64,000 nt of DNA from the IMG/VR virus record IMGVR_UViG_3300044632_000653, one strand, 5' to 3'. Below the pieces are notes generated by a model, which was given only the letters and a program-made list of their open reading frames with translations, did no database searches and was not told the DNA's origin. Below, in pieces: positions 734 through 31,574 of this stretch. Every line of letters starts with the position of its first letter. Positions within the stretch are counted from its first letter, which is position 1. Both the position numbers and the translations under genes were made by a program. The stretch comes from a virus.

Positions 734-1561
734 ATGATGTCATTCAAGTCATACATCTCTCATATCCAAGAGGGTGCCCCGCTAGAGAAGTCGGGGTTCA
801 CCCGCCTCAAGGGTCAACCCAAGAAGGCTGCTCGCAAACTCGCCTATGCCCTCAAGAAGGGCGACTACACCAAGGCAAACGAACGGTACACACGGAAGTC
901 CGTGAGCCAAATGCGTAGGGTCGGGGACCAACTCGACCGTGCGACGAGGGACTTCAAGTCCCGCATGGGTCTCGCCGACGAGTCGGTGAAGGAATCCGTC
1001 AGCGAGGCTGCGAGGGGATTGGTCGGGTCGAAGAACAAGTGGTCGAGGATCGACTTGACGCAGACCAAGGGCAACACCGATGTCCAATCGGACATCTATG
1101 ACATGATCAAGCAGACCTATGCAGGTCTCGGCGGTCACCCCGACTTCCCTTCCCGTGACAGGGTCCCCCACGACAACGACGGGGTGGACATCATCGACAC
1201 GGACGGTCCCGATGACATCGATGCGACGATCCTGAGCAAGAAGACGATGTTCGGTCGCAAGATGACCACGATAGCGACAGACGGTCAGCAGGATTCCAAG
1301 AGGGCGATGCTCTCCAAGTCCGTCGAACTCCTACAGCAGAGGGGCAACTACATGGAAGCCTCGGGCAAGGTCCTTGAGATCCTGATCTCCAAGGGAGCCA
1401 AGCCTGTCACGGATCAGAAGACCGTGGAGAAGGTCCTCACGGGCAAGACGATCCATTGGCACGGCGACCACCCCGAGGGTCTCAAGGGTGAGGGTTGGTA
1501 TTCTCGCACCATCGGTGGTAAGATGCACACCAAGATGATGCTCGGAAACCCCATTCCGTAA
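734..1561 (+). CDS. Putative internal head protein; two modules with a capsid-targeting-like leader
   Basis: N-terminus MSFKSYISHIQE; acidic linker ESVKESVSEAA; AGGAG RBS. Confidence 0.7.
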   Translation: MMSFKSYISHIQEGAPLEKSGFTRLKGQPKKAARKLAYALKKGDYTKANERYTRKSVSQMRRVGDQLDRATRDFKSRMGLADESVKESVSEAARGLVGSKNKWSRIDLTQTKGNTDVQSDIYDMIKQTYAGLGGHPDFPSRDRVPHDNDGVDIIDTDGPDDIDATILSKKTMFGRKMTTIATDGQQDSKRAMLSKSVELLQQRGNYMEASGKVLEILISKGAKPVTDQKTVEKVLTGKTIHWHGDHPEGLKGEGWYSRTIGGKMHTKMMLGNPIP

Positions 1562-1568
1562 ATACCTT

Positions 1569-2135
1569 ATGAAGACCTATTGGCAACTCATCCTTGAAGT
1601 GACCGCCGCCGTCAAGTCGAGGGTGGCGAAAGCGATTCCCTCCCTTGTCGTACCAAGGGAACCATATCCATGGTCAACCCCGCACAGCGGGTGGTGGCAT
1701 CCGACGAAGCCTCCCGTGAACTTTTCATGGGGAAGCGGGAACTACCACATCACGCAGGTGGTGAAGAACCCCTCGGCATTCGGCACTACCAAGGAAGAGA
1801 TCTACAAGATCCTCATGCCTGAGTACGGAAACGACGAGGAGATGGTCGCCGAGGTCTACAACAACCTCATGCTCGGGCTGCGAGACACCAATCGTCACAT
1901 CGAACGCCATGTCTTCAAGAAGGGGTGGGTGCGGGTGAAGGTCTTGGGGAACTTCAATCGAATCAGCGTCATGGTCGAGGGCATCTCGCCCTACACCAAC
2001 AGAGCCGCCGAGATCGTCGCCATCCATGCGTTCGCCACCGAGAACAAGGGTGGCAGGATGTCCCTGACCATCGCAGACACGGTGAAAACCTACGGCACAG
2101 CCGAAGACATTGAGCGTTACGGCAAGGGTCGATGA
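1569..2135 (+). CDS. Putative internal head protein
   Basis: MKTYWQLILE leader; TAAATA at 1559-1564. Confidence 0.7.
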   Translation: MKTYWQLILEVTAAVKSRVAKAIPSLVVPREPYPWSTPHSGWWHPTKPPVNFSWGSGNYHITQVVKNPSAFGTTKEEIYKILMPEYGNDEEMVAEVYNNLMLGLRDTNRHIERHVFKKGWVRVKVLGNFNRISVMVEGISPYTNRAAEIVAIHAFATENKGGRMSLTIADTVKTYGTAEDIERYGKGR

Positions 2136-2165
2136 GATAAATAAGGGAATACCAAAGGGGAGAAG

Positions 2166-3587
2166 ATGCAGAACTTCAGCGACAACGGCAAGAAGGACTT
2201 CGTTTGGGGCGGATGGCGCAAGCCGTATCAGTACATCCTTGACGAGGCGAAGACCCCCGAGGTAGCCCCCGAGGTCAGCGATGTCCAAGAGTCGTTGGGT
2301 ACTGACATCAGCCTTTATGGGTGTGGACGGAAGCACTACAAGGAGATCCGTTCCATCCTCAAAGATGCGAACAAGTATCAGGGTCCTAGCGGATTGGATC
2401 CTCTCATCCACGATGCGATGATAAACCTAGAGCATCTTGCAGTTGCTCTTGCGGAACCGCATTCCACTCCAAGTGTTGTGAAGGCTGTTGAGGATTACCG
2501 CAACAAGGTCTTCATGTCGATTCGTCAGTTCATCAGGGGCGTTCAGGCGAACACACGCCCCTCGTACTTTAGTGGACAGAGGCAGTTTCCCTTGGCTATG
2601 AAGATCGATAAGTTGCTGCTCAAGATACAGAATTGCAGCCAATCTTTCACGACGAAAAAGAAGGCTAGGCAGTCACCGACATTGTCGGCAAACCCTTTCA
2701 AAGATCTGTCGGTCAGCGAGTCGGTGAGTGCGACTAAGGAATACCGACAGAAGAAGATCCAAGCGAACCGAAGGCTGATCGTCAAGTTGGGAACCGCCGC
2801 ACAGAAGGTCGAGGACACCGCTGCGAGGCGTGAGATCACGCAGACCCTCTCGTCAGCCGATGCCTACAACAGGCGGCTCGGAACCCCCGAGTTCTTGAAG
2901 TACGGTCCCGCATATTGGGTGAACTTTGAGGGCATCTATGTCGGCAGGGAACTTGAGCGGGTCAGGTCCCTGCTCGTCCACCACGGCATCGTGATCCCAA
3001 CTTCCGAGTCGGTCGAGGAATCGGATGTGCTGACTGAAGAGAAGGAATACATCTTGTGGGCGATCCCAAAGGGTGAAACGGATGCTTTGTATGCAAAGCC
3101 TGTCTATACCCAAGGAAGGTCGATGGATGACATCAAGAAGATGATGGAATTCTTCAAGAAACAAGGATGGCACTCGTTCAAGGTGCAGACGATTGACCTT
3201 TCCGAGCCGATGGATGCTGCCAAGGCATTCCGTAAGGCAATCAATCCCCCATCGAAGTGGCGGAAGCCGTCAAGCGTGAAGCGGGAGTCGGTCGAGGAAG
3301 GCGATGCGATGACCGAGGCGAAGCGACAGCCCGAGGAGAACTACTTCAAGTCCTACACGGCAGCGGTCAACGCCGCCCGAGCGAAGGCAGAGAAGAAGGG
3401 CTACGAGATTGACGAGGACGATTGGAGCAGCAAGGTCACGCACGGATACCCTGGTCGCCCGTCCGAGGGGAAGACCACCAACTTCAAGATCAGGCTCCTC
3501 AAGGGCGGCAAGCCCGTCAAGAACATGCTCGTCGTGTCGGTCTACGGGATGAGCGCATCCTTTGAACTGACGAGTTACATCAGTTGA
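2166..3587 (+). CDS. Multi-module late protein (putative E-cleaved polyprotein)
   Basis: TAAATA at 2138; linkers SVSESV, ESVEESDVLTEE, ESVEEGDAMTEA. Confidence 0.7.
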   Translation: MQNFSDNGKKDFVWGGWRKPYQYILDEAKTPEVAPEVSDVQESLGTDISLYGCGRKHYKEIRSILKDANKYQGPSGLDPLIHDAMINLEHLAVALAEPHSTPSVVKAVEDYRNKVFMSIRQFIRGVQANTRPSYFSGQRQFPLAMKIDKLLLKIQNCSQSFTTKKKARQSPTLSANPFKDLSVSESVSATKEYRQKKIQANRRLIVKLGTAAQKVEDTAARREITQTLSSADAYNRRLGTPEFLKYGPAYWVNFEGIYVGRELERVRSLLVHHGIVIPTSESVEESDVLTEEKEYILWAIPKGETDALYAKPVYTQGRSMDDIKKMMEFFKKQGWHSFKVQTIDLSEPMDAAKAFRKAINPPSKWRKPSSVKRESVEEGDAMTEAKRQPEENYFKSYTAAVNAARAKAEKKGYEIDEDDWSSKVTHGYPGRPSEGKTTNFKIRLLKGGKPVKNMLVVSVYGMSASFELTSYIS

Positions 3588-3615
3588 CCACGGCATAGGT
3601 TCCGTGTGTTCCCCG

Positions 3616-3657
3616 AACGAAAACCCCCTGCCTCACGGCGGGGGGTCGTTCGTTTTT
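3616..3657. terminator. Intrinsic terminator between convergent genes
   Basis: CCCCCTGCC-TCAC-GGCGGGGG hairpin with T/A tails; similar hairpin at 27560. Confidence 0.7.
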
Positions 3658-3667
3658 GGAGATGGGG

Positions 3668-4075
3668 TCAGCCGCCGACAGCGACCATGCGGGAGGAGTC
3701 GAGCCACCAACCATAATAAGTGTTGCGCCCCACCACGATGGTCATCTCACGGTCGCCTCTGTGGCGGCAGCGTTGGCAGCGGACTCCACGCATCGTGTAG
3801 GTCATGCGGCGAACTTCTCCCTTGTACACGATCTGATCGTGGACGGTGAGGTCGAGGAGGTTGCCCTGCTTGCCCTTGCGGATGCCCTCGACCACGGCGA
3901 CGATGCGGCGGCGACCGACCTCATTGGTGCGGGGGCAACACAGACCCGTGGCGGCTTCGCAGACATACGCCTTGCCGACCACGAAGGTGGCAGAGGTCCT
4001 GTCCGTTTCGGAGACAGGAAGGGCGAGGAGATCGGCGGTCGAGAGGATCAAGTTGGTCTCGGTGGTCTCGGTCAT
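3668..4075 (-). CDS. Hypothetical early protein
   Basis: ORF with AAAGGAAAG RBS, starts MTETTET. Confidence 0.65.
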   Translation of the reverse strand: MTETTETNLILSTADLLALPVSETDRTSATFVVGKAYVCEAATGLCCPRTNEVGRRRIVAVVEGIRKGKQGNLLDLTVHDQIVYKGEVRRMTYTMRGVRCQRCRHRGDREMTIVVGRNTYYGWWLDSSRMVAVGG

Positions 4076-4097
4076 TCGTCGCTTTCCTTTCGTTCGG

Positions 4098-4561
4098 TGT
4101 TCGGGTCTCGGGCTAGAGGCTCTTGACCTTGGCGTTGGCGAGGAGGTAGCGGTCGCTGCCCCAAGCCGTGTGCCACGACCACTCGACATACTCGGGTCGG
4201 TGGTGGCGGTAGGTCACGCAGCCCTCCTCCGTGTCCTTCACGGGGATGCCACGGATGATCTCCGTCTCGTCGGGACGGAACCGCTCGACCTTCGGGTTGT
4301 GGGGCTTGTGGGAGGTCACGGCGATCACGGCGATGGTGACGGACTTCCCCTTCTCCTTGCGGTCGATCACGGTGACGAGGGTGCGGAACTCGCCCTTTCC
4401 GTCCATCCGCTGACGCTTGTAGAGGTAGGTCTCGCCAACCTCAAACCGAGGCTTCACTCCCTTGCGGTCGTAGACTCGGGTTTTGGCTTTGTGGGGGTCG
4501 AGGGTCTTCACCGTCCTAGGCATTCGGAGGCTCCCTTCATGTTCGGGTCTCGGGCTAGAGG
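4098..4561 (-). repeat. 22-bp direct repeat in two 5' UTRs (4098-4119, 4540-4561)
   Basis: TGTTCGGGTCTCGGGCTAGAGG identical in both copies. Confidence 0.9.
4113..4523 (-). CDS. Hypothetical early protein
   Basis: ORF with GGGAG RBS downstream of a sigma70-type promoter. Confidence 0.65.
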   Translation of the reverse strand: MPRTVKTLDPHKAKTRVYDRKGVKPRFEVGETYLYKRQRMDGKGEFRTLVTVIDRKEKGKSVTIAVIAVTSHKPHNPKVERFRPDETEIIRGIPVKDTEEGCVTYRHHRPEYVEWSWHTAWGSDRYLLANAKVKSL

Positions 4562-4571
4562 GTCCTTCCCT

Positions 4572-4609
4572 CTCACCCAAAGAATACGATAAGAAACGAT
4601 TCGTGTCAA
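4572..4609 (-). promoter_or_regulatory. Early sigma70-type promoter, copy 1
   Basis: TTGACA-17 nt-TATTCT on the minus strand. Confidence 0.8.
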
Positions 4610-4619
4610 GGATCAGGGA

Positions 4620-4979
4620 TCAGAATCCCTCGGGGTACATCCCGTCGAGGTAGTCGTAGACCTCGACGGCGACCCCTGCGGCATCCTCCATCCAAGCAAC
4701 GAACTCCTGCACCTCCTTGACGGTGCGGTCGCCGATGAAGCCCGTGGGGTTGATCGACACCGACCAACCCTTGCGGACCTTGGAGTGGGTCGCCGTGACG
4801 ATGGCGGACCAATACGAGTCCCGCAGGTTGATCACCACCTCGCCGTCATCCACGGTGACGGTCGAGAGATCGAACCGACCGTAGCGGTTGGTCTCAAGCA
4901 GGTCGGTGAACTGCTGCTTGACATGATTCTTGTTGGCGGTGGACTTGGTGGACTTGGTGGACTTGGCGGACTTGCTCAT
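4620..4979 (-). CDS. Hypothetical early protein with KST repeats
   Basis: GAGGAG RBS; MSKSAKSTKSTKST. Confidence 0.7.
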   Translation of the reverse strand: MSKSAKSTKSTKSTANKNHVKQQFTDLLETNRYGRFDLSTVTVDDGEVVINLRDSYWSAIVTATHSKVRKGWSVSINPTGFIGDRTVKEVQEFVAWMEDAAGVAVEVYDYLDGMYPEGF

Positions 4980-4988
4980 GGTTGTCTC

Positions 4989-5026
4989 CTCACCCAAAGA
5001 ATACGATAAGAAACGATTCCTGTCAA
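4989..5026 (-). promoter_or_regulatory. Early sigma70-type promoter, copy 2
   Basis: Near-identical to 4572-4609. Confidence 0.8.
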
Positions 5027-5027
5027 C

Positions 5028-5372
5028 TCACCTAGAGGGGTTTCCCGCAGGATCGTATTCCTTGAAGCCAAGGGCGACGAGGTCACCCCATAGGTCTCGG
5101 GCGGCGATCCGAATCAGGTGCCTCCCGATAGCCGACCTGAAGGTGATGCTCTCCTCGGTCTGCGCCCACTCGGGGAGTACGAGATCGCCCGATGGCTTCC
5201 ATATCCATACGAACTCGTCCATCTTCGGTGACCAATAGAAGACTTGGACATGGTCCTCGGGTCGGCTCATTCGGACATGGAACTCAAATCTCTGACCCAT
5301 GTTCGGGAGGAAGAGCCTGTGACGGACATGGTCTCGGTCGAAGGGGCTCAAGTATTCTCCACGGTGTTCCAT
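5028..5372 (-). CDS. Hypothetical protein
   Basis: ORF in the minus-strand gene run; start uncertain. Confidence 0.5.
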   Translation of the reverse strand: MEHRGEYLSPFDRDHVRHRLFLPNMGQRFEFHVRMSRPEDHVQVFYWSPKMDEFVWIWKPSGDLVLPEWAQTEESITFRSAIGRHLIRIAARDLWGDLVALGFKEYDPAGNPSR

Positions 5373-5800
5373 TCGGGGGGGTCTCCTGCGGAGGGAGTGA
5401 ACGAGGGGGGATGGGCTTGGCGGGTGAGCGAGGTGTAGGGCGGTTCTTGGGCTCGGTAGGAAGGGCTGTTCGGGGGGACGGTCCATCCGTGGGAGGCGAG
5501 GCGTTCCCATACGGATCGGGCGTACTCCACGGACACGGTCATCGGTCTGTCGCTGCCGAGCCGAAGGTCGTGGACCACCGAGGGTCCGACGAGGACGCTC
5601 TGCACCTCAAGCGTGTCGGGAGGATGGCTGTAGGTGGAGGTCTTCGTCCTCCAATACATGATCGTCACCTGACGCTTCACGGCTGCGTCGGTGGCATCGA
5701 ACATCATCACCTTGTAGTGGGAGGTTCCCGAAGGACCATGGATGTGGGATGCCCCCAAGGGACCGATGTTGTACTCCCAAAGGTAGTGGACTTGCGACAT
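5348..5800 (-). CDS. Hypothetical protein
   Basis: TTGACG-17 nt-TATCTT promoter 7 nt before the ATG. Confidence 0.6.
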   Translation of the reverse strand: MSQVHYLWEYNIGPLGASHIHGPSGTSHYKVMMFDATDAAVKRQVTIMYWRTKTSTYSHPPDTLEVQSVLVGPSVVHDLRLGSDRPMTVSVEYARSVWERLASHGWTVPPNSPSYRAQEPPYTSLTRQAHPPSFTPSAGDPPEWNTVENT

Positions 5801-5832
5801 GTCTGAAAAGATAGCATACGACGGAGCCGCCG

Positions 5833-6600
5833 TCAAGAGAAAAGACCTCCCCCGTCCCAACCGTGGTAGGAGACCCACTCGGATCTGTCCACCGTCCCTC
5901 CCCGCCTCATGTTGGGCACCCGAACATCCTTGACCTTCTCCCATTCCCACCCCGTGAAGACCTCTCGGCAGTTCGTCCCGTAGGTCACCATGCAGGGGAC
6001 ATCCCCTCGTCGCTCCACCAACCCCACGGTGTCGGAAGCCCTGTAGCCGTCCTCCATCCCGTCACCATAGTTGCCCACGGTCCCCAAGTACGGAGGGTCG
6101 ATGAAGAGCCCGTCGCCCGTCTCGTACAGATGGTCCTCGCCCCGACCATGCACGACCACGACATCCCGAAGCCGACCGAGGCATCGGATCGTCTCGTCCA
6201 CGGGAAGCCTGTGCTGTGGGTAGACCTTCCATGAAGACAACTGCCCCACGACCACCGAGCAGACATTCACCCGAACATATGCCCTAGCCCCCACAGACAA
6301 TCCCATGTCTCGTACATCGGGCTTCGATTCCAACTTCTTCCGATCCTCGACCAACCGATTCAAGTCACGGAGTTCCTTCTCACCCACCCCTTGGAGCCAA
6401 CGCCACAGTTCCACCAACTCAGGGTTCAGTTCGTAGCCCAAGAGGGGAAGACCCGAGTTCAGCCCGTAGGCTCCCGAGCCGAGATAAGGCTCTACGATGC
6501 GGGTCACCCCATGAGAAAGGGGACGGTACAGACCGAGGAGTTTTGACTTGTTGCCCGAGTAGCGGAAGAGACGGAGAGGGGAGGATGCCATGCACTCCAT
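5833..6600 (-). CDS. DNA adenine methyltransferase (Dam/D12 class)
   Basis: FRYSGNK, EPYLGSGA and IDPPY motifs in alpha-class order. Confidence 0.85.
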   Translation of the reverse strand: MECMASSPLRLFRYSGNKSKLLGLYRPLSHGVTRIVEPYLGSGAYGLNSGLPLLGYELNPELVELWRWLQGVGEKELRDLNRLVEDRKKLESKPDVRDMGLSVGARAYVRVNVCSVVVGQLSSWKVYPQHRLPVDETIRCLGRLRDVVVVHGRGEDHLYETGDGLFIDPPYLGTVGNYGDGMEDGYRASDTVGLVERRGDVPCMVTYGTNCREVFTGWEWEKVKDVRVPNMRRGGTVDRSEWVSYHGWDGGGLFS

Positions 6601-6944
6601 ATCGACCCCGAACAGAGGAAATTGGAGTTTGAAACCCACAGAAACCTCGTTTCCCCGCAAATAGAGGGGTGGGGACACCGTGGGGAGAGCGTGGATGAAG
6701 AAAGATAAGGAAAGAAACGAGAGGGAAGAGGGGGGAAGGACGGGGAAGGATCGGGAACCCCCGCAGTTCGCTAGGAACGATGGCGTGTTAGCCGTCGAGG
6801 CAAAAGCCGAAAAAATTGAGGGGTCTCGCCCTACCACATTCCACGCCCGTGTCAAGAAAAATCCACCAAGATTTTCAAAAAAGTTTCCATGAAAAAACCC
6901 CGAGATTTTCTCTCGGGGCTCTTGACTTTTCTCAAGTCATACTT

Positions 6945-7289
6945 TCAGAACTTCGGCTTGACTTCCCCCTCGTTGATCAGCCGCATGATCTCCTCGGTCG
7001 CCAACTTGTCGAAGTTCGACACCTCGTCGGGAGCCGTGGTCTCGGTGTCGTAGATGTGGCTGATCGTTTGGGTCGGTGGATCTATGAGAGCGACCGCTCC
7101 CGTGTATGAGAGCGAGAGTACAGGATCCTTCTTCCACGCTCCCGATGTCAGTTCGATGAACCGCTTGGCATCCACCCTGTGGTACTGACGGGTGTGAGCG
7201 TCCTGTGCGATGTGGATGGGATTCCCTATCGCCATGCCTATGGGTATGCCTATCTCTTGCAGGGATGTGTAGACCACTACCTGTGCCAT
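6945..7289 (-). CDS. Hypothetical protein
   Basis: AGGAG RBS; followed by a hairpin and T-run at ~6892-6918. Confidence 0.65.
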   Translation of the reverse strand: MAQVVVYTSLQEIGIPIGMAIGNPIHIAQDAHTRQYHRVDAKRFIELTSGAWKKDPVLSLSYTGAVALIDPPTQTISHIYDTETTAPDEVSNFDKLATEEIMRLINEGEVKPKF

Positions 7290-7393
7290 GCGATGCTCCT
7301 GTCTGTTGGGGGTGCGTGTTGGGGGTATGAGAAGACCCACTCCCTCATCGTCCGAAGGGAGTGGGTCTCTTGGTGTCTCGTCTCGGCTCCTCG

Positions 7394-9943: not shown

Positions 9944-9959
9944 GGTTTGGGTTCTCTCT

Positions 9960-9995
9960 TCACCTAGAGAATACCAAACCCCCTATGGTTTGCAA
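9960..9995 (-). promoter_or_regulatory. Early promoter of the VWA gene
   Basis: TTGCAA...TAGGGGGTTTGG-TATTCT. Confidence 0.65.
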
Positions 9996-10087
9996 CCTTT
10001 TACGGTGCATGGGCTTGGATTTTCCTATCTTTTCCCGAGGTTTTCGTCCACGGTCGGATTCCGTTAGGTACTCGGCGCATAGCGAGG

Positions 10088-10410
10088 AAGGTCCGATAAC
10101 CTTGTGGACAACTAGGGGGTCTTGACAGCAAGCACCGAAGGTGGTAAGATGGATGCGGACCCCTAAAGTGGCGTATAAAAAAATGCTGCCCCCTTCATTG
10201 TACCATGCCGAGCCGCCCGTTGTCAATGGCAAATCGGGGGAAAATTCCAAGAATTTTGTGGTCGGGGGGTCTTGACAGCGACCGTAGGGGTATGGTACAA
10301 TGAAGGGGGCGACACAAATTTTTAGCCACGCTTGGGGGTCCGCATCCATCTTACCATACCAAGCCGCCTGTTGTCAAGTTCCCAAGTTATCCACAAGGTT
10401 ATCGGACCTT
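10088..10410. repeat. Large imperfect inverted repeat with four sigma70 promoters and two DnaA boxes (candidate origin)
   Basis: Complementary blocks 10088-10113/10385-10410, 10143-10163/10335-10355, 10188-10206/10292-10310; TTATCCACA at 10387-10395, TGTGGACAA at 10103-10111. Confidence 0.85.
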
Positions 10411-10501
10411 GAACGCCGCTTGGCGGCTCGCCGTGGCTCGCCGAGGGCTCACATAAATCCATGTTTTTCCTACCTTTTCGGTACGGAATACCCCTAACGA
10501 G

Positions 10502-10530
10502 TTGACATGGGATAGGGGTTTGCTACCTTA
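10502..10530 (+). promoter_or_regulatory. Early promoter of the AAA gene
   Basis: TTGACA...TAGGGGTTTGC-TACCTT; same design at 22724-22751. Confidence 0.75.
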
Positions 10531-10590
10531 TAGGTGATGAGAGAGGCACTCTCAACTCCCACTCGCACCCTTCAGACGGAGGCTCCGACC

Positions 10591-11859
10591 ATGTCCCTCA
10601 CCCGCCTACAGCAGCAGTTTGTGGATGCCGCCCGTGTGGCATACCCGAACCGCACCGACCTCACGATGCAGGAGGTCCTCGCCGTCTGTAAGACGGCAGG
10701 GATGAACCTCCCGCAATGGCTCACCAACGACCGTCAGTATCGGGTCAAGCGAGGCTTGTACCGCCTCCCGACCGCCGAGGCTCCTGCGGTCAAGGCTGCG
10801 GTCGCCACCGCCCCCAAGACGGTGGCTGCGGCTGTCGCCGAGCCGAGGAAGACCGAGGTCGATGCCTCCCTCGCCTTCATGGGCGGGGCATCGCTCGTCC
10901 CCGCCAAACTCCCGACCTATGTCCCCTTCGGCGCACACGCCGACCTCAACAAGGTCATCAAGAGCCGCCGCTTCTACCCCGTGTACATCACGGGTCTCTC
11001 GGGCAACGGCAAGACCACGACGGTCGAACAGGCTTGCGCCGAGAACGGGCGTGAGTTCTTCCGAGTGAACATCACCCCCGAGACCTGCGAGGACGATCTC
11101 CTCGGCGGCTTCCGTCTCCTCAACGGCGAGACGGTGTGGGTCGATGGTCCCGTGGTGGTCGCCATGAAGCGGGGCGGCATCCTCCTCCTTGACGAGATCG
11201 ACCTCGGCACGATCAAGGTGATGTGCTTGCAGCCTGTCCTTGAGGGCAAGCGGGTCTTCATCAAGAAGACCAACACTTGGGTCGCCCCTATGGAGGGCTT
11301 CAATGTCATCGCCACGGGCAACACGAAGGGCAGGGGCGACGATACGGGCAAGTTCGTCGGAACGAACTGCATGAACGAAGCCTTCCTCGACCGCATCGGC
11401 GAGACGGTCGAGCAGGACTACCCGCCCGAGGCAGTCGAGGTCAAGATCGTCAACGCCAACCTCAAGGCGGTCGGTGTGGTCGGTCAGGAGACCTTCGCCA
11501 CCGCCTTGGTCAAGTGGGCGGCATCGATCCGCAAGACCTTCGCCGAGGGCGAGGGCGACGAGGTGATCACCACCCGCCGCTTGGTTCAGGCTGCGAACGC
11601 CTACGCCATCTACGGCGACCGCCTCAAGGCTGTCGAGAAGGTCACGACTCGGTTCGATGCGGTGACCAAGGCGGCGTTCATCGACCTCTACAAGAAGTTG
11701 GATGCCGAGGCTACGGCTGCGGCTGCTGCCGAGGTCGCTGAAGCCGAGCGTCTCGCACAGGCTCCGACCGCTCAACAGGTCACGCTTCCGAACACGGTGA
11801 CCACGGCTACGGCTGCGACCACGACCACGGCTGCGACCACTACGGGTTGCCCGTTCTGA
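10591..11859 (+). CDS. CobS/MoxR-like AAA+ ATPase
   Basis: Walker A GLSGNGKT, Walker B LLLDEID, sensor ATGN, NEAFLDR. Confidence 0.9.
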   Translation: MSLTRLQQQFVDAARVAYPNRTDLTMQEVLAVCKTAGMNLPQWLTNDRQYRVKRGLYRLPTAEAPAVKAAVATAPKTVAAAVAEPRKTEVDASLAFMGGASLVPAKLPTYVPFGAHADLNKVIKSRRFYPVYITGLSGNGKTTTVEQACAENGREFFRVNITPETCEDDLLGGFRLLNGETVWVDGPVVVAMKRGGILLLDEIDLGTIKVMCLQPVLEGKRVFIKKTNTWVAPMEGFNVIATGNTKGRGDDTGKFVGTNCMNEAFLDRIGETVEQDYPPEAVEVKIVNANLKAVGVVGQETFATALVKWAASIRKTFAEGEGDEVITTRRLVQAANAYAIYGDRLKAVEKVTTRFDAVTKAAFIDLYKKLDAEATAAAAAEVAEAERLAQAPTAQQVTLPNTVTTATAATTTTAATTTGCPF

Positions 11860-11909
11860 TCTTCTCACGAAGAGAGGAGTGGGGTTGAGCCTCCGACTCC
11901 TCTAGTGCC

Positions 11910-11949
11910 TCCCCCCTGCATCGACAACGGTGCAGGGGGTTTTCTTTTT
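11910..11949 (+). terminator. Intrinsic terminator
   Basis: CCCCCTGCA...TGCAGGGGG followed by TTTTCTTTTT. Confidence 0.8.
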
Positions 11950-12962: not shown

Positions 12963-12976
12963 GAACCCGTGGAACG

Positions 12977-13513: not shown

Positions 13514-13939
13514 ATGATCGGCAACGGGATCGACGAAGACATGACCGAGGGACTTCGGACGGTAGCGAAGTTCTACACCATGCCACTCGGTTTGCAGGTC
13601 GAGTTCAGGTTCGACCCGTCCAAGCCCAAGGAGGTGATATCGGTATCGGGTGGAACGAGCCGCAAGGTGCCGACCGAGTTGGTATTGGGATGGATTGCCT
13701 CCTACAAGCACATCGATGACATGACGAGGACTGAACTCAACGGGGACAAGAGCCACTACGCTGTTCCCGACATGGACCACGGTCACTCGCCCGAGTTCGT
13801 CATCGGTCCTTACTGGAGCAAGTTGTTCCTCAACAGACAGGGAAAGACTTCGATAAAGCACACCTTCCCCGATGTGTATGTCTATCCCCATTGGCTGAAG
13901 CGGATCAGGGAACTGCTGACGGTCAAAAGACTTCCATGA
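13454..13939 (+). CDS. Late hypothetical protein with shared leader
   Basis: Same cassette as 13011 but an unrelated body. Confidence 0.7.
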   Translation: MTNENQITTATMRNLVEAANMIGNGIDEDMTEGLRTVAKFYTMPLGLQVEFRFDPSKPKEVISVSGGTSRKVPTELVLGWIASYKHIDDMTRTELNGDKSHYAVPDMDHGHSPEFVIGPYWSKLFLNRQGKTSIKHTFPDVYVYPHWLKRIRELLTVKRLP

Positions 13940-14376
13940 AGACCTTCGTCTCCTACATCTCCGAGAACGCCCCCGAGGGGGCACCGAAGCCCGAGCGCAA
14001 GATCGGCAAGGTCAAGTATTGGATGAACTTGACGGACAAGCAGGACGGCGAGGAGCCTTTTCGGGAGGTCGAGTACACCCGCAAGGTGAAGTCCGACACC
14101 GTGCCGAACGCCCATTGGTACTTCCTTGGTGACACCCCGATGTCGGGGATGACTAGGGGAGAGAGGCGTTACAGGGCGGCGGTCGTTTTGCTCATCGACA
14201 CCCATGGAATCTTCCTTGCTACGGTGAAGGAGGATGCCAAGATATCCAAGGGCAACTACGGCAGGTGGCAGTCGGGGGACTTTTGGACGGACAACTTCAC
14301 CGCCGCCAAGCGGCATGCCGAGGACCTCGCCCTTCGCCGACTACAGCGAGAACAGCAACCGAAGCCAAAGGCATGA
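13936..14376 (+). CDS. Putative internal head protein
   Basis: MKTFVSYISE leader; ATGA overlap. Confidence 0.7.
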   Translation: MKTFVSYISENAPEGAPKPERKIGKVKYWMNLTDKQDGEEPFREVEYTRKVKSDTVPNAHWYFLGDTPMSGMTRGERRYRAAVVLLIDTHGIFLATVKEDAKISKGNYGRWQSGDFWTDNFTAAKRHAEDLALRRLQREQQPKPKA

Positions 14377-14756
14377 AGACCTTCGTCTCCTACATCTCCG
14401 AGGCTGCGAAGCCTAGTCGTACCGTGCCCTACCGTTGGAGTGCGACGGATACGCAGCATGCCATGAACTACACTCGGACGATGCCGTCATCCGTTCCGAA
14501 CGCCAAGTGGTATGTGGTCGATGGATCATACGACAAGGAGAAGAAGGACTACCGCCTCCTCCGTGACGGGGTGGTAATCGCTCATATCAGGTATCACCCG
14601 AGCGAAGGCGTGTGGCGATGGGAAACCATCCACAGCGCACCTAGAGGTGGATTGGGGATGGGTAGGCACGACAAGGGGAAGTATGTGTCTAGTAAGCCCC
14701 TCGCCCTTTCATTAGCGGAGAAGCAGATCATCGAAAGGGAGAGGACCGCAGGATGA
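14373..14756 (+). CDS. Putative internal head protein
   Basis: Identical MKTFVSYISE leader (31-bp DNA repeat); shares YTR..VPNA.WY with the previous gene. Confidence 0.7.
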   Translation: MKTFVSYISEAAKPSRTVPYRWSATDTQHAMNYTRTMPSSVPNAKWYVVDGSYDKEKKDYRLLRDGVVIAHIRYHPSEGVWRWETIHSAPRGGLGMGRHDKGKYVSSKPLALSLAEKQIIERERTAG

Positions 14757-15145
14757 AGGACTTCCACGGATTCATCTCCGAGGCTCCCGTCTCGTACACC
14801 GCAGTCATGCTCGACCAACGGAGCCATGACCTTCTCATGTCGAGGATGCGTCCTCACATGCCCGAGGGATGGAAGGTGTACGCCCACCACATGACGATGC
14901 ACATGGGAGCGGCGAAGCCCGAGGACAGGGTCGGGCAGTCCGTGACCATCGTCGCAGACGCATGGGCGGCTGACGAGCGCACGGTCGCCGTGAGGGTCAC
15001 GGGTCACCCGAGCAGGAACAGGACCCCGCATGTGACCGTGGCTGTCAATGCCGCTGCGGGTGCGAAGCCCAAGGACAGCAACCTCCACACGGAATGGAAG
15101 CCGATGCCTCCGCTGAGGCTGACGGGCACCGTGGGAGAGGCTTGA
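14753..15145 (+). CDS. 2H phosphoesterase (cyclic phosphodiesterase-like) with a capsid-targeting-like leader
   Basis: Two HxT motifs (HHMTM, PHVTV); leader MKDFHGFISE. Confidence 0.75.
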   Translation: MKDFHGFISEAPVSYTAVMLDQRSHDLLMSRMRPHMPEGWKVYAHHMTMHMGAAKPEDRVGQSVTIVADAWAADERTVAVRVTGHPSRNRTPHVTVAVNAAAGAKPKDSNLHTEWKPMPPLRLTGTVGEA

Positions 15146-16589: not shown

Positions 16590-16901
16590 GTGAGGTCGTT
16601 CAAGTCATACATCTCCGAGGGACCGTACTCGTTCAAGGACTTCAAGGATCCTTGGGCTGTCATGTCGCCCGAGGACCGCAAGGAAGCGAACCGCCTGTTC
16701 AAGGCGGCGATGAAGGCGTTCCCTTCCTCCATGCGGCAGAAGGAACTGCAAGCCAAGTTGTTCGCCCTCCTCGACAAGTATGGGATAGGGAAGACAAAGG
16801 TTGCCGAGGATTGGTCGAAAGAGTACAAGGCTTCGATCAACTGCAACAACCCCAAGGGCTTCTCGCAACGGGCGCATTGCCAAGGCAGGAAAAAGGGATG
16901 A
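16590..16901 (+). CDS. Putative internal head protein
   Basis: GTG start MRSFKSYISE; C-terminal CNNPKGFSQRAHC module; TACATA at 16578. Confidence 0.7.
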   Translation: MRSFKSYISEGPYSFKDFKDPWAVMSPEDRKEANRLFKAAMKAFPSSMRQKELQAKLFALLDKYGIGKTKVAEDWSKEYKASINCNNPKGFSQRAHCQGRKKG

Positions 16902-18202
16902 AGTCATATCACGAACTCGTAATGTTCCTTGAGAACAGCGGTGTGATGAGGTTCACCGAGCGTGGACTCTCGTCCTATCTCAGTTCGGCAGAGCGCATGG
17001 TCAAGGATGCTCAGGCGAGGAGCGGAGACTTCGCACGGATGCAGGACGCACAGATCGCAGCAGTCCTCGGGCATCTCATATCCCATATCACCCGAATCGT
17101 GAACACCGTTCCGAAGGACACGGATCCGAAGGCAGTCGGCATCGCACGGAAACTCCTCTCGCTCGGCGGCAAGGCTGCGAGCGTCAAGAAGGCATTCGAT
17201 GACCTCAGCCGCAGCGGTGCGGCGATTGCTGCGAGGATGACCTCCGAACTGCAAGGCAAGTACGACATGCGGTTTGAGTCATATGATGGAGCGCATCCCT
17301 ACGAGATTGAGCGTGATCGGATCACCAAGGAAACAGTAGCCGCAGCAAAGGCAAGGGGATCGTCAAGGACGCAGGGAGAGAAACTTGCCAAGATAGAGAT
17401 AGAACGATGGAAGAAGGCAGAAGGCAAACACTTGTATTCCGACTTCACGAACCGACAATTTCGTGCAGCAACGGATCAGGAGAAACGAAACGAAGAGCGT
17501 GAAGCGCAAGCAAAGCAAGAAATCTCCCGAATGTTCTCTGATGCTGACAGGCTACTTGTAGCCGCAGGGTTCAAGTTGGAGCGTGGTCCTCAAGGCGGAA
17601 GCCAGTCACGCTATTACACCGATGGTAAAATCAAGGTCCGTATTTCGGACCACGAAGTTCCCATGACTGCGGAGCGTCAACACAACAGGACGGTCAGCGG
17701 CAGGAATCCATGGTTTGAATTCATATTTGGTGAACGAGATAGAGCAGGTGTCCTACGAGTGAATCCGAAGGAGTTGCAGCACTTGCGTGATTGGATTGGT
17801 GATCTGAAGGAAATGCGATCCGAATCCCACGACCCCAAGCACATTGACGAGACTGCCTACGGAGTGTTCTCCAACTACCTCGGTTCCTCCATGATGTCGT
17901 TCGTGCAGACGAAACAGCATGAGTTGGATCGCAGGACCGACAAACTCACGAAGGCTCTCGCCCGTGTGCATGCACAAGGGGCTGCGGGAGTCCAAAGGGA
18001 CCTCGGCTTGCCATTCGCACAGGTCAGCCTCGACGGGGTGGAGTTCCGTCCGCACAGGGGTGGCGTGAGGAAACTCCTCGTCCGATTCAACCCGAACGGG
18101 ACCCTCGGGATCAACGCCGATGGGAAGACGGTGGCGAACTCCGCAGCCCTGCGTGACATCGGTCCCCTCATGGCGAAGATCGTCGGCGGCGGATTCGCAT
18201 AA
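16898..18202 (+). CDS. Multi-module putative internal protein
   Basis: MKSYHELVMFLE leader; central lower-GC module containing SRYY...VRISDH. Confidence 0.65.
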   Translation: MKSYHELVMFLENSGVMRFTERGLSSYLSSAERMVKDAQARSGDFARMQDAQIAAVLGHLISHITRIVNTVPKDTDPKAVGIARKLLSLGGKAASVKKAFDDLSRSGAAIAARMTSELQGKYDMRFESYDGAHPYEIERDRITKETVAAAKARGSSRTQGEKLAKIEIERWKKAEGKHLYSDFTNRQFRAATDQEKRNEEREAQAKQEISRMFSDADRLLVAAGFKLERGPQGGSQSRYYTDGKIKVRISDHEVPMTAERQHNRTVSGRNPWFEFIFGERDRAGVLRVNPKELQHLRDWIGDLKEMRSESHDPKHIDETAYGVFSNYLGSSMMSFVQTKQHELDRRTDKLTKALARVHAQGAAGVQRDLGLPFAQVSLDGVEFRPHRGGVRKLLVRFNPNGTLGINADGKTVANSAALRDIGPLMAKIVGGGFA

Positions 18203-18278
18203 GATCACCGCATAAACGCAGAAACTGAAGACGAACCCCCTTGATGGTTATCGGTAATGAGTGGTAACCTCACAGACC

Positions 18279-18959
18279 ATGAACAAGACTTTCATGCGTA
18301 ACCTTGCCGAGAACATCGCCCTCAACTCTCTTCGCCACGGCGGTCTCCTGCCGAAGCATCAGGTCATCGTGGACCGTCAGGACTCGGACCCATCCACGGT
18401 CCTCGGCAAATGGGACGGGAAGATTCCGTTCGGTCCACCTGCACCAAACGCAAGTGTGGAGACCGTCATGGAACTCAACCACATCGTTGAAGGTCAGACA
18501 CTCGCATCGAAGGAAGAGATCGAATTCAGTCTCTCTATCGACAAGCCGAGGAACCACTACGAATGGTGGAGCAGGGAGGTCGAGTCCCTCACGGGCAGGA
18601 GGCACTCACCCGACAGGCTCTACATGATCGCCGACATGGCTGAGGGATTCCTCCTGCGGCTGAAGGCGCACTTCGACCGACCGAGACCGTATCAACTCGG
18701 TCCCCACCTCGGGAAGCGCATCCACATGTTCCTGCCCGACCCGAGGACACCTTCGTATCCATCGGGTCACTCGTTCGACGCATACCTGATCGCACTCACA
18801 CTCAGCGACGAGCATCCCGAGCATCACGAACGCCTCTTTGAACTCGCCGACACAGTCGGGGTTACGAGGATCATCGGGGGAGTCCACTACTCCTCCGACA
18901 TCACGGCGGGTCGCAACGCCGCCATCATCGCACACCGCATCATCAAGGGAATGAAATGA
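18279..18959 (+). CDS. PAP2-superfamily acid phosphatase
   Basis: KAHFDRPRP, SYPSGHS and RIIGGVHYSSD motifs. Confidence 0.85.
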   Translation: MNKTFMRNLAENIALNSLRHGGLLPKHQVIVDRQDSDPSTVLGKWDGKIPFGPPAPNASVETVMELNHIVEGQTLASKEEIEFSLSIDKPRNHYEWWSREVESLTGRRHSPDRLYMIADMAEGFLLRLKAHFDRPRPYQLGPHLGKRIHMFLPDPRTPSYPSGHSFDAYLIALTLSDEHPEHHERLFELADTVGVTRIIGGVHYSSDITAGRNAAIIAHRIIKGMK

Positions 18960-19267: not shown

Positions 19268-19271
19268 AATA

Positions 19272-19425: not shown

Positions 19426-19491
19426 CATGTATGTATGGAGGTCGAGAGGTGGGGATGCTCTAAATACTCCACACATACGAAAGGGAAATCC

Positions 19492-19758: not shown

Positions 19759-19770
19759 GGATCCGACACC

Positions 19771-20088
19771 ATGAAGAACTACCGTGAGTTCATCACCGAG
19801 ACCTTCGATTCCTTCAAGGTGTTCAAGCACAAGGCGAACGCCAACGAGGAGGATTCCGAGTACGGCATCAGGGCTCTGATCCGATACACCCATGTTCTTC
19901 CCTCGGGTGAGAAGACGGTCATCACCTCTCTCTTTCCTCCGATCCAACTGAGGACAACGGACAACAAATACCAGTTCAATCGCCATCTCAACGCAATGGT
20001 TGCGAGTCTCAAGGCTGAAGGCAGGGAGATCCTCGGCATCCACATGAGAGGTGATCCACTCTACGACAGGCTTATGAAAAGGGGGTAA
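19771..20088 (+). CDS. Putative internal head protein
   Basis: MKNYREFITE leader. Confidence 0.7.
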   Translation: MKNYREFITETFDSFKVFKHKANANEEDSEYGIRALIRYTHVLPSGEKTVITSLFPPIQLRTTDNKYQFNRHLNAMVASLKAEGREILGIHMRGDPLYDRLMKRG

Positions 20089-23634: not shown

Positions 23635-23711
23635 CATAAACGAGATCCTTTCCCCGACCCTCCGTGAGCCTTGGTTCACGGGGGGTTTCTTCATGGCTAA
23701 ATATGAAAGCC

Positions 23712-25047: not shown

Positions 25048-25205
25048 AACCACCGTGATGCCTCGCTAGCAGGGCTATGTTCACGGGCAAGGCATCTCGT
25101 AAGGGTGCCGTGGGTGGTTGGAAGCGGTTCCCCACCCTTTCGTTGAAGCCCCACGGGAGATAGCATCTCCCGTCCGACCCCCCTTGGATCCGAGGGGGGT
25201 TTCTT
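25048..25205 (+). ncRNA. Candidate multi-hairpin small RNA
   Basis: TAGATA at 25037; four hairpins then a terminator; no credible ORF. Confidence 0.4.
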
Positions 25206-25242
25206 CATTGCTAAATACTCCCAATCAGGAGTTTGAACAGCC

Positions 25243-28459: not shown

Positions 28460-28462
28460 ACC

Positions 28463-28663: not shown

Positions 28664-28762
28664 ACCAAAACCCCGCCCCGCAAGGGTGGGTTAGCCTTGG
28701 CAAGGACAGGGAGGGAGCCTTCGGGTTCCCTCCCTTGTCTTTTGGAAACCATAAATACTCAT

Positions 28763-29059
28763 GTGAAGACCTTCAGCGAGTACATCATGGAGACCAACAC
28801 CACGGCAAACCTGATCTATGCGGGGACGGACTTTGCCGTCGATGATGTCGGGGGAGACTTCGATGTCGAGGACTACGAATCCGAAGACCCCGAGGACCGC
28901 AAGAAGATGAAACCGTGGGAAGTGGAGAACGCCGAGGAAGCGAACCGCCGCAGGAACCACATCCTGCAGTGGCTGAAGGCAGCGGGGGCAAATCAATCCA
29001 AGGCGGTGACCGACAAGAGTTTGCCGCTCACACCCGAATGGCAGTCGAGGACACGATGA
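28763..29059 (+). CDS. Putative internal head protein
   Basis: GTG start MKTFSEYIME; TAAATA at 28752. Confidence 0.7.
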   Translation: MKTFSEYIMETNTTANLIYAGTDFAVDDVGGDFDVEDYESEDPEDRKKMKPWEVENAEEANRRRNHILQWLKAAGANQSKAVTDKSLPLTPEWQSRTR

Positions 29060-30000
29060 AGTCTTACCAGCATTTCATAAACGATCTCAACGAGATGAAG
29101 AACATAGGTGACGGCGACTGCATGGTGGTCGCCGCACAGATGTTGGTCTATCAGTCGTTCGGACCACACGCCGACATCGTGAACAAGGACTCCGTTCTCG
29201 TCCATGCCCTCGTCAGGGGTCAAGGCAAGGCGAAGGGTCTCCGATTCGCCCACGCATGGGTCGAGACGGGTGACACGGTTTACGACTACAGCAACGGCAA
29301 CAAGATAGCGATGCCGAAGGATGTCTACTACGCCATCGGCGGGGTGAAGGCCAAGCAGAAGGGTGCCTACTTCACATACACGCTGAAGGAAGCGAAGAAG
29401 AAGTTGCTCTCGACGGGTCACTACGGTCCTTGGGATCTTGACGAAAGCCTTGAGGAGAACAAGATCTCGGATCCCCGAGGGATCGGTCGGAAGAGGCTGC
29501 GGCTGTCCCCGAAGATGACCGATTTCCTCAAGACGAAGTTGACCGAGGCGATCATCACGGGTCGCCCGACCACGGGCATGCGCACGGGCGGGGGTGTGCG
29601 CTCCCTCGCACCCGCACAGCCGCAGGAGCATTCGTTCGTGTCGTGGAACGATCTCAAGCGGCTTGAGTCCATGCTTGATGCGCTCTTCGCACAGGCGGGT
29701 CTCGACATCGCCTTCACCAAGCACTTCTGGGAACGAATCAATGGAAGCCGTGGCTACGGTGGTACGGTTTCGATCCCCGAGTTGCAGGATGCCTTCCGCA
29801 AGACCTTCTCCAAGTACGCACAGCAGATCAAGGGGAAGTCGGTGAATTGGAAGGCAATCATCCTCGACATCGGCAAGGACCACCTCAACATGCCCTTCGT
29901 CCTCAATTGGAGCCCACAGGAGAAGGAGATGTCCATCGTCGCCCTCACGGCGATGAAGAAGCGCAACTTCATGGCATCCGAGCCCAAACTCCCCGTCTGA
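29056..30000 (+). CDS. Two-module putative internal protein; N-terminal transglutaminase/papain-like motif
   Basis: MKSYQHFINDLNE; GDC...HAWVE...YD; linker KLTEA. Confidence 0.6.
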   Translation: MKSYQHFINDLNEMKNIGDGDCMVVAAQMLVYQSFGPHADIVNKDSVLVHALVRGQGKAKGLRFAHAWVETGDTVYDYSNGNKIAMPKDVYYAIGGVKAKQKGAYFTYTLKEAKKKLLSTGHYGPWDLDESLEENKISDPRGIGRKRLRLSPKMTDFLKTKLTEAIITGRPTTGMRTGGGVRSLAPAQPQEHSFVSWNDLKRLESMLDALFAQAGLDIAFTKHFWERINGSRGYGGTVSIPELQDAFRKTFSKYAQQIKGKSVNWKAIILDIGKDHLNMPFVLNWSPQEKEMSIVALTAMKKRNFMASEPKLPV

Positions 30001-30003
30001 ACC

Positions 30004-30186
30004 ATGGAAGACCGAATCATCAACCGAGGGAAGGATTGGTTCGCCTTTACGAAGAGCATGGCTGACTACATGGTGAAGCCCATCCCGAGGAAGTTGCGGG
30101 GAGAGCCGAAGACCAAGGGAATCGCCAACGACACCCGACAGGCGCAGCACTCACCGACGAAGAATACGACAAGGATGCGACTCTAA
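30004..30186 (+). CDS. Small hypothetical protein
   Basis: Fills the gap, TAATG coupling to the next gene. Confidence 0.5.
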   Translation: MEDRIINRGKDWFAFTKSMADYMVKPIPRKLRGEPKTKGIANDTRQAQHSPTKNTTRMRL

Positions 30187-31574
30187 TGAAAACCTACTTC
30201 GACCTACGACAGGACCTACGACAGCAGAACCCCGATCAAGCCGAACTCATCGCCGAGCAGTTGAACCGCTACCTTGAGGAGAAGGCACTCGTCCTCGGGA
30301 AGGGCGAGAACTACGGACAGGCGGTCATCCTTGCGGGTGGTGCGGGATCGGGCAAGTCTTTCGCCGTCAGCAACTTCATGCAGGGGGAGAAGTTCAAGGT
30401 GTTCAATGTGGACTCACTCAAGGACACCCTGCTCTCCATCAGGGATCGTTTGAAGCGAGTCCCTGACATGCAACTCTCGGGAGGTATCAAGAGCGTCGTG
30501 CAAGCGATCCAAGACCTCAACCTGAGGAAGCCAAAGGATGTGGGCACCCTTCACATGATAGCGAAGAAGTTGGGTGGCAGGGGTCCAAATGACTCCACGA
30601 TGATTGGCAGGGTCGTTGGCAAGGTCGATGACACCAACTTCCACAAGCAGGAGGACATCCTCTCGCTGAAGGAACTGATCAAGGACTTCAATGTCGATCA
30701 GAAGAATCAGATCATGTTCTTCGCCGACAAGACCAAGAGCGTCAAGCCGAATGTGATGTTCGATGTGACGCTCAAGGACATCGGTGCGCTGCATAGTGAA
30801 CTCGGTGGAGAGTTCGGCATCATCCAACTCCTCAAGATGGCGGGATATGCACCCGAGAACATCCACATCGTTTGGATCCTCACGGACTACCGCATCGCCA
30901 TGCGGCAGAACCTCACCCGCAGTCGTGTCGTGGCATCGGACATCTTCTTCGCCACGCACCTCGGCGCAAGCGGAACCATGCGGGACATCGTCTTCAAGAA
31001 CTACTCAAGCCTCGGGATCAACGGCGATATCGCCGTCATCCTCGGAGGCGGCAAGGGACAAGTCGAGTTTGAGGTTGGCAAGTCCTATGGACCCGATACG
31101 AAGTCCACCGAGGGGACTCCTCTCCTCAAGGGCGGTCTCAAGGGGAAGTCGTTCACCGTGACCTCTGCGAACAAGTTGACGCTTCCTGTGTTCATCGACT
31201 TCCGCTACTACAGGCTGAAGAAGGCAGGTGACCGTTCGATCAACCGAGAGGCTCTTCAGTCGATCCACGATGCGATCAGCAAGATGGCACCGAGCGGGAA
31301 GACGGGTGCGGCGGCTGCACAGGCGCAGGTCGTGCGGAAAATAATGAGCGACTTCAACGGGGCGCAGAAACTGATCTTGCAGATGCTCCAGCGAGGTGTC
31401 TCGGTCGAGCAGATCAAGAGCGAGTACAGGAGGAAGTTCCCTCCCCTCAAGCCGATCCACCCCGAGACGGCTGCTGCACTCGGTCTCTCCGAACTTGAGT
31501 ACAAGCCCGTACTCGACCAACGGGTGGCTGACATCCTCGGTTTGAAGGTCGGGGAGTACAAGTTGAGGAGTTGA
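30186..31574 (+). CDS. P-loop kinase (zeta-toxin/AAA-like)
   Basis: ILAGGAGSGKS, FNVD, MFDVT. Confidence 0.75.
   Translation: MKTYFDLRQDLRQQNPDQAELIAEQLNRYLEEKALVLGKGENYGQAVILAGGAGSGKSFAVSNFMQGEKFKVFNVDSLKDTLLSIRDRLKRVPDMQLSGGIKSVVQAIQDLNLRKPKDVGTLHMIAKKLGGRGPNDSTMIGRVVGKVDDTNFHKQEDILSLKELIKDFNVDQKNQIMFFADKTKSVKPNVMFDVTLKDIGALHSELGGEFGIIQLLKMAGYAPENIHIVWILTDYRIAMRQNLTRSRVVASDIFFATHLGASGTMRDIVFKNYSSLGINGDIAVILGGGKGQVEFEVGKSYGPDTKSTEGTPLLKGGLKGKSFTVTSANKLTLPVFIDFRYYRLKKAGDRSINREALQSIHDAISKMAPSGKTGAAAAQAQVVRKIMSDFNGAQKLILQMLQRGVSVEQIKSEYRRKFPPLKPIHPETAAALGLSELEYKPVLDQRVADILGLKVGEYKLRS

Follow-up and report, generated by a model that had tools for sequence, protein, structure and literature searches.

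That a short N-terminal peptide can target proteins to the capsid has long been known for the T-even phages (PMC3012670, PMC12373910). The internal proteins of T4, IPI, IPII and IPIII, are injected inhibitors, each acting on a different GmrSD restriction enzyme (PMC12373910). In the T4 leader, targeting depends on positions 4 and 7 and processing on positions 8 and 10, and an Asp at position 10 prevents cleavage while leaving targeting unaffected (PMC9026906). In the T4 record, ipII and ipIII encode the 10-residue leader, while that of ipI is 19 residues long and ends I-T-E, so that longer leader forms have precedent. Here we describe a 64,000-nucleotide stretch of viral DNA (IMG/VR record IMGVR_UViG_3300044632_000653; hereafter the window) in which at least 11 unrelated predicted proteins, several of them predicted enzymes, carry an N-terminal leader, or tag, of this kind. 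A first-pass annotation of the sequence had proposed a large family of proteins with leaders like those of the T4 internal proteins. The likeness to T4 is borne out by comparison with the T4 record, as the window tag agrees with the T4 capsid targeting sequence at positions 4, 7, 8 and 10, the positions to which functions have been assigned (PMC9026906).

A common leader on unrelated proteins

Genes in the window were called with a purpose-written codon-bias script, yielding 83 genes and 19,400 residues; since this is not a standard gene finder, the start sites given here are predicted ones. The strict leader motif, M-[KRS]-x-[FY]-x3-[ILVFM]-[ILVMST]-E, occurs nine times in these residues, eight times directly after a start codon and once internally, and a six-frame scan of the window found no further start-codon match. 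The tag is thus far more frequent at N-termini than expected by chance. The eight strict leaders are those of the genes starting at 1569, 13936, 14373, 14753, 16590, 19771, 28763 and 61606, all on the + strand (genes are named below by their first nucleotide). The tagged genes and candidate members are:

734..1561, + strand: 275-residue basic protein with a 13-residue leader variant (positions 1-9 canonical, His10, then I-Q-E)
1569..2135, + strand: 188-residue basic protein with the canonical 10-residue leader; a TAAATA lies 4 nt before the ATG
13936..14376, + strand: 146-residue basic protein, canonical leader
14373..14756, + strand: 127-residue basic protein, canonical leader; its start and the 13936 stop codon overlap
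14753..15145, + strand: 130-residue basic protein, canonical leader, minimal 2H-phosphoesterase-like body
16590..16901, + strand: 103-residue basic protein, canonical leader with the highest matrix score; GTG start here, ATG in the related fragments G001 and G002
16898..18202, + strand: 434-residue basic protein with a 12-residue leader variant; the G003 orthologue has the canonical 10-mer
18279..18959, + strand: possible member, a soluble phosphatase of the PAP2 family whose N-terminus resembles the leader with a one-residue shift
19771..20088, + strand: 105-residue basic protein, canonical leader
28763..29059, + strand: 98-residue acidic protein, canonical leader, GTG start; TAAATA 5 nt upstream
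29056..30000, + strand: 314-residue basic protein with a 13-residue leader variant (Asp10, then L-N-E)
30186..31574, + strand: weak member, 462-residue relative of Zeta-toxin-like P-loop kinases
33580..34134, + strand: HAD-like protein; canonical leader in the G002 orthologue only, the window N-terminus having diverged
60452..61609, + strand: weak member, DUF6267 protein, ligase-like
61606..64000, + strand: canonical leader; the window covers only the first 798 residues of this protein, whose orthologues have 1,200

We also scored N-termini with a position matrix trained on the leaders of an independent protein family. Ten N-termini of the window (16590, 14373, 13936, 28763, 61606, 19771, 734, 14753, 18279 and 1569) outrank 99.9% of 18,404 internal 10-mers, and scores of window N-termini below these ten are noise. 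When the leader is divided according to function, the targeting half (an aromatic residue at 4 and an aromatic or hydrophobic one at 7, right after the initiator Met) is found in 13 window proteins. The processing half (I/L/V-x-E at positions 8-10) is present in eight genes and displaced to positions 10-13 in three more, the 12- to 13-residue variants of 734 (13), 16898 (12) and 29056 (13); it does not occur in 30186 and 60452. In 734, 16898 and 29056, position 10 is His, Phe and Asp, respectively, with another x-E following two to three residues on.

Comparison with related IMG/VR fragments (G001, G003, G004 and G005, and G002, whose polymerases are 99%, 89%, ~80% and 64% identical to that of the window, respectively) helps to place these variants. 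Both 16898 and 29056 can be taken as true members because their orthologues in G003, G004 and G005 have plain 10-residue leaders. No orthologue of 734 was found among the related contigs, and its membership therefore rests on its register and matrix rank: read from 734, and not from 737, the protein has F4, Y7 and I8 in register with the other leaders. The genes at 16590, 28763 and 61606 start with GTG, which their orthologues keep or replace with ATG, and 16590 has an additional in-frame ATG at 16563.

The two weak members match the leader at positions 1-7 only. The 30186 family retains these positions together with Glu or Asp at 10; 30186 has Arg at 8, and an L-x-E site comes ~15 residues later. 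The N-terminus of 60452 aligns with the canonical leaders of its homologues, but its second residue is Leu in place of Lys and a Thr lies three positions ahead of the Glu. Homologues of 1569 at four other IMG/VR loci (L124, L197, L198 and L201) carry the canonical leader, and residues 1-31 of the 19771 protein match phrog_2667, annotated as 'internal head protein'. No C-terminal motif common to the cargo proteins, as we call the proteins behind the tag, was found (Cys-x2-P-K-G-F-S occurs in 16590 only), and the I-Q-E linker motif is not enriched in the window (three seen against 1.9 expected).

The N-termini that the first-pass annotation had listed, from its first gene at 737 to that at 61606, are all where it had placed them. 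Two details required revision, in that 16590, 28763 and 61606 begin with GTG and not ATG and the first gene is better read from 734. Of the membership it had proposed, we retain eight proteins with strict and three with variant leaders, and regard 30186 and 60452 as weak members. Its statement that the open reading frames (ORFs) behind the tag are unrelated also holds: an all-against-all BLASTP comparison of the mature parts found them unrelated except for one weak pair, 13936 and 14373 (E = 0.004).

Resemblance to capsid maturation sites and a proposed role

The last four residues of the leader resemble, in sequence, the sites at which capsid proteins are matured. T4 gp23 is cleaved after F-L-T-E (followed by A) and T4 gp24 after L-L-R-E, and the gp23 of G002 has Y-L-R-E followed by S at the position homologous to the T4 gp23 site. 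G002 (168 kb, 93% complete) also has a Peptidase_S77 (gp21) gene and a scaffold gene adjoining its gp23 gene.

We consider it probable that in this phage lineage the common leader corresponds to the T4 capsid targeting sequence and that the window encodes an enlarged, enzyme-rich and fast-changing set of cargo proteins. The tag would be a propeptide of 10-13 residues with the pattern M-[KR]-x-[FY]-x-x-[aromatic]-[ILV]-x-E, which would dock freshly made late proteins onto the prohead scaffolding core. A gp21-type prohead protease would then remove it by cutting after the Glu, leaving the mature, mostly basic proteins within the DNA-filled head, from where they would most likely enter the cell along with the DNA. 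We infer each of these steps (packaging, docking, cleavage after Glu, residence in the virion and injection) from sequence.

Several points weigh against this interpretation. Position 10 is His, Phe or Asp in three of the leaders, which would need the second site two to three residues on, and the I/L-x-E half of the tag is missing from 30186 and 60452. A cargo protein of 1,200 residues and the acidic 28763 protein are unlike the classic T4 internal proteins. The motif alone is no proof of late expression or packaging, because T4 gp61.1, encoded among replication genes, has it too. Neither Peptidase_S77 nor the gp22/gp23 head module is present in the window or in fragments G001 and G003-G005, and in the open literature we found no paper describing the tag outside the T-even phages.

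Conservation of the leader peptide and its transcription context

The 29056 family provides 39 distinct leaders. Lys or Arg occupies position 2 in 35 of them, Tyr, His or Phe is found at position 7 in 38, and every one has Leu, Ile or Val at position 8, while positions 3, 5, 6 and 9 are free to vary; positions 4 and 10 are uninformative in this set because they were fixed by the way in which the leaders were selected. The tag is retained in orthologues despite changes at the free positions. The leader is conserved at the protein level and not at the DNA level.

This bears on the proposal that the similarity is a nucleic-acid feature, such as one that helps translation to start on late mRNAs that are leaderless or poor in Shine-Dalgarno sequences, or simply a remnant of gene duplication. 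Several of the genes do start 4-9 nt past a TAAATA without a Shine-Dalgarno sequence, and 13936 and 14373 share 30 nt of identical leader DNA. Yet the peptide pattern is kept with different codons both within the window and in contigs of 24% to 57% GC, some of the start codons are ATG and others GTG, the cargo bodies show no relationship to one another, and most leader genes lie within overlapping-stop operons and not at mRNA 5' ends. We consequently give an origin of this type very little credence.

The hexamer TAAATA occurs at 13 sites in the window against 2.3 expected, all on the + strand, and 12 of the 13 lie just upstream of gene starts:

28752..28757, + strand: TAAATA box, late-promoter-like
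303, 1559, 2138, 12469, 19461, 23698, 25212, 33569, 36869, 39729, 40876 and 47484, + strand: other TAAATA sites

A TAAATA directly precedes 1569 and 28763 and is found within one unit before 734 (the site at 303, one gene upstream), 19771 and 29056. A strong terminator followed by TAAATA frames the units starting at 19492 and 28763; upstream of 19771 these are the terminator at 19386-19413 and the box at 19461, and a terminator with a 12-bp stem (28708-28735) precedes the box of 28763. In G002, TAAATA precedes capsid, scaffold, sheath and other virion genes as well as several tagged genes. By its placement the hexamer thus behaves like a late promoter, and the first-pass annotation had described most leader genes as lying in TAAATA-type late units. 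That description does not extend to the operon at 13936-18202, which has no clear TAAATA of its own, and matches to sigma-70-type promoters between 12 and 32 kb of the window are at chance level. Nor does the box separate cargo from other genes, or make a late unit specific to leader genes, because genes of the replication module and other non-cargo genes have it too.

Three further observations concern these boxes. At 1559, 28752, 33569, 36869 and 47484, only 4-9 nt separate TAAATA from the start codon and there is no Shine-Dalgarno sequence, a spacing from which late mRNAs with little or no leader may be suspected. Often the box supplies, with its TAA, the stop codon of the preceding gene. 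Composite cassettes, in which a GC-rich terminator hairpin is followed by TAAATA within 15-50 nt, are found at 19386-19466, 23669-23703, 25176-25217 and 28708-28757, around variable gene units. The arrangement recalls the promoter/stem-loop shuffling cassettes described for T4-type phages (PMC2839356, PMC4122927).

Predicted cargo enzymes and their turnover

As the first-pass annotation had anticipated, the predicted payload includes enzymes, with RimK/RimB-type, 2H-like, kinase-like and ligase-like proteins among them. The most elaborate is the 61606 protein, in which a nucleotidyltransferase-like region is followed by a RimK-type ATP-grasp ligase and a RimB-type retropepsin, and which also has a DUF3140 region. 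The window protein matches Pfam RimK (E = 3.7e-30) and, over residues 540-655, RimB and Zn_protease; its G003 orthologue scores 143.9 bits against TIGR00768 (cut-off 143.4). The 14753 protein has H-x-T-x motifs at residues 46 and 93 and matches Pfam tRNA_lig_CPD at 22.4 bits, under the 23-bit cut-off. The 30186 protein of the window has no Pfam match, but its distant homologues carry PF06414 and the family has the motif G-A-G-S-G-K.

In 60452 we find the motifs K-W-D-G, E-G and K-x-V-x-R, with K55, D57, G58, E357, G358 and K369 invariant in 11 sequences, which may be compared with motifs I (K-x-D-G), IV (E-G) and V (K-x-K type) of the ATP-dependent RNA/DNA ligase superfamily. The best structural match of its model (predicted local distance difference test, pLDDT, 85) is RNA ligase 5cot, with Z = 8.7 over 184 residues and a Foldseek E-value of only 0.035. 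The 29056 family comprises more than 50 proteins, nearly all tagged and a few without a tag, in which Cys22 and His66 are invariant; its model (pLDDT 69) suggests a papain- or transglutaminase-like N-domain and a weakly RelE/RegB-like C-domain, with all structural scores below the level that would prove a fold. A search of the ESM Atlas with the 29056 protein returned unnamed viral clusters only. No significant match turned up when PDB sequences were searched for relatives of the 14753, 60452 and 29056 proteins, and because Foldseek found nothing at E <= 0.001 for the 29056 and 60452 models, the fold assignments rest on weak, thematically consistent matches together with conserved motifs. The other six tagged proteins show no recognizable family; 734 has no match in Pfam or PHROG.

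The leader genes change faster than their surroundings. Core genes of the window and G001 share 97-100% identity and leader genes 69-96%, the lower figure being that of the 13936 protein and its orthologue. The 30186 protein and its G001 counterpart (42925-44271) share only 35% identity with the conserved N-terminus retained, while flanking genes are 91-98% and the polymerases 99% identical, a difference that looks like whole-gene allelic replacement. In the G001 copy of 16898 (56618-57373), the first ~133 and last ~130 residues are 93-94% identical to the window protein and the middle ~170 are missing. G001 also has an additional tagged protein of 318 residues, and one G001 gene consists of the upstream region and leader of 16590 joined to the cargo of 14373, with the crossover falling within 13 shared nucleotides at the leader end. 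This junction is direct evidence that recombination inside the leader exchanges cargo between near-identical phages. Tags also vary in presence: DUF6267 proteins are untagged in Syn9 (gp183) and P-HM2 (P-HM2_162) and tagged in many IMG/VR members, and the nucleotidyltransferase P-HM2_163 is untagged.

The mature parts have an isoelectric point of at least 9.5 in nine of 11 cases, where the other genes have a median of 6.5 (Mann-Whitney p = 8e-4), and those of T4 IPII and IPIII, calculated from the T4 record, have values of 9.6 and 9.7. Strongly basic mature parts would fit DNA-associated head fillers, and several of the cargo proteins are small with no recognizable fold or family. It is thus conceivable that the tagged proteins are packaged but act within the head, in DNA charge neutralization, DNA organization or as accessories of the core or scaffold, and are not injected effectors. 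We regard this as unlikely, though it is the alternative we take most seriously. The predicted enzymes (the RimK/RimB polyprotein, the 2H-like, kinase-like and ligase-like proteins and the Cys-His domain) would be ill suited to an inert filler, the fast turnover and cassette exchange between phages that are 99% related look like those of arms-race genes, and T4 IPI, IPII and IPIII are themselves injected anti-restriction proteins (PMC12373910).

Distribution of the tag among phages

The window has a G+C content of 57% and encodes, on the + strand, the T4-type replication proteins clamp, clamp loader, DNA polymerase, UvsX and gp41 helicase. In gp41 it shares ~60% identity with its nearest cultured relatives, which are cyanomyoviruses and the Methylophilales phage Melnitz. 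Megablast and tblastn searches of window segments against INPHARED phages gave no match for positions 1-20000, a 765-residue ORF or the 19771 protein. By sequence, then, this uncultured, GC-rich phage is without a close relative among deposited phages and only distantly akin to T4. Its full genome is probably ~245 kb, because CheckV estimates the 61.7-kb G001 to be 25% complete.

One narrow DNA version of the tag is carried by at least 120 IMG/VR loci, where ~1 would be expected by chance on a rough estimate. Among the IMG/VR matches listed, nearly all coincide with the start of an ORF; the proteins so tagged are of many kinds, and homologues of gp41, gp43 or UvsX often lie beside them. Unrelated ORFs headed by the tag number in the hundreds in T4-like IMG/VR contigs. 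Tandem arrays of three to four tagged genes occur in GC-rich relatives (L197, L198 and L201). In individual genomes the same DNA pattern is found as follows, the reversed pattern used as a control giving no match in any genome save P-HM2 (one):

Window: 5 matches in 64 kb
G002: 5 in 168 kb
T4: 3 at gene starts in 169 kb
Syn9: 1 in 177 kb
P-HM2: 1 in 184 kb

Syn9 gp184 (DQ149023, 149735-150883, locus L190) has the canonical tag at its start, next to the untagged gp183 (DUF6267), and offers a test case in a culturable phage. In T4, gene 61.1 (NC_000866, 18966-19130, locus L203), a 54-codon ORF beside the primase gene, begins with a near-perfect 10-mer of the capsid-targeting type.

The tag might instead be a sorting or recognition peptide that has no connection with the prohead and serves some other machine, be it a modifying enzyme, a membrane site or a degradation pathway. 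That the window holds a second, different N-terminal module is in favor of such a role, but the tag agrees position by position with the T4 sequence defined by experiment, the maturation site of capsid proteins is mimicked by its final residues, and no constant partner gene accompanies it among the at least 120 IMG/VR loci, where it is T4 core genes that recur. We judge this possibility to be improbable, and favor the capsid-targeting role.

A broader proposal is that the tag is a general plug-and-play loader in environmental T4-like phages (cyanophage-related and from freshwater), spread by recombination in the leader, and that it brings enzymes (ligase-like, kinase-like, 2H-phosphoesterase-like, papain-like and RimK/RimB-type) into the cell at infection. 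We advance this tentatively, being rather more doubtful than confident of it in its full extent. If it were true, the injected proteome of uncultured phages would be predictable from their genomes alone. Should the tag work as in T4, a scan for the N-terminal motif would list the proteins delivered with the DNA, and that list is the expected place for functions of the first minute, anti-defense and host takeover. The set in the window is several times that of T4 and includes kinds of enzyme not known as phage head cargo. The crossover seen inside the leader offers a concrete mechanism for reshuffling such arsenals, and the natural leader variants and large natural cargo may be useful for T4-based protein-packaging technology.

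Other features of the leader-gene region

The second common N-terminal module, [ML]-[RK]-[NQ]-L-[VT]-E-[AS]-A-N-x-I-G, is unlike the capsid-type leader. It begins four otherwise different proteins, one of them a S-adenosylmethionine (SAM) lyase (PF23780):

13011-13421: second N-terminal module
13454-13939: second N-terminal module
19492-19758: second N-terminal module
34131-34757: second N-terminal module

Over their first 24 residues 13011 and 13454 share 82% identity, beyond which the two proteins are unrelated. Three of the four genes lie immediately upstream of tagged genes. The leader-gene cluster also contains two genes conserved in G001 and G002:

15217-16548: cohesin-domain protein with a signal-peptide-like N-terminus
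20092-21162: dockerin-domain protein

Comparison with known systems

Encapsulins provide an analogy from outside the phages, in that a short portable cargo-loading peptide brings unrelated enzymes into a shell of the HK97 fold. Their peptides differ from the leader described here in being usually C-terminal and uncleaved, and no delivery into another cell follows.

Among phages, the giant ϕKZ and SPN3US have ejection proteins, many of them head-internal, with N-terminal propeptides that are cut after Glu by a gp21-related protease (PMC5694885). Those propeptides are longer than 100 residues, are not one common short tag and have another cleavage motif. Enzyme cargo has a precedent in T4 Alt, an ADP-ribosyltransferase that is packaged in the head, undergoes trimming by gp21 and passes into the host on ejection (PMC9026906). 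Alt differs from the window proteins in having its own short propeptide and a C-terminal cut, whereas they have a tag of the internal-protein type and no common C-terminal motif.

It is the T4 internal proteins that the window proteins most closely recall: a 10-residue tag with Lys2, aromatic residues at 4 and 7, Ile or Leu at 8 and Glu10; longer leader variants; unrelated, mostly basic cargo with only the tag in common; and hypervariable loci in a late-promoter-like context. The differences are of scale and content. T4 internal proteins are inhibitors of 8-20 kDa, whereas the cargo here, known from sequence alone, would extend to multi-domain enzymes of up to 1,200 residues, and where T4 has three internal proteins, the window has at least 11 tagged genes in 64 kb.

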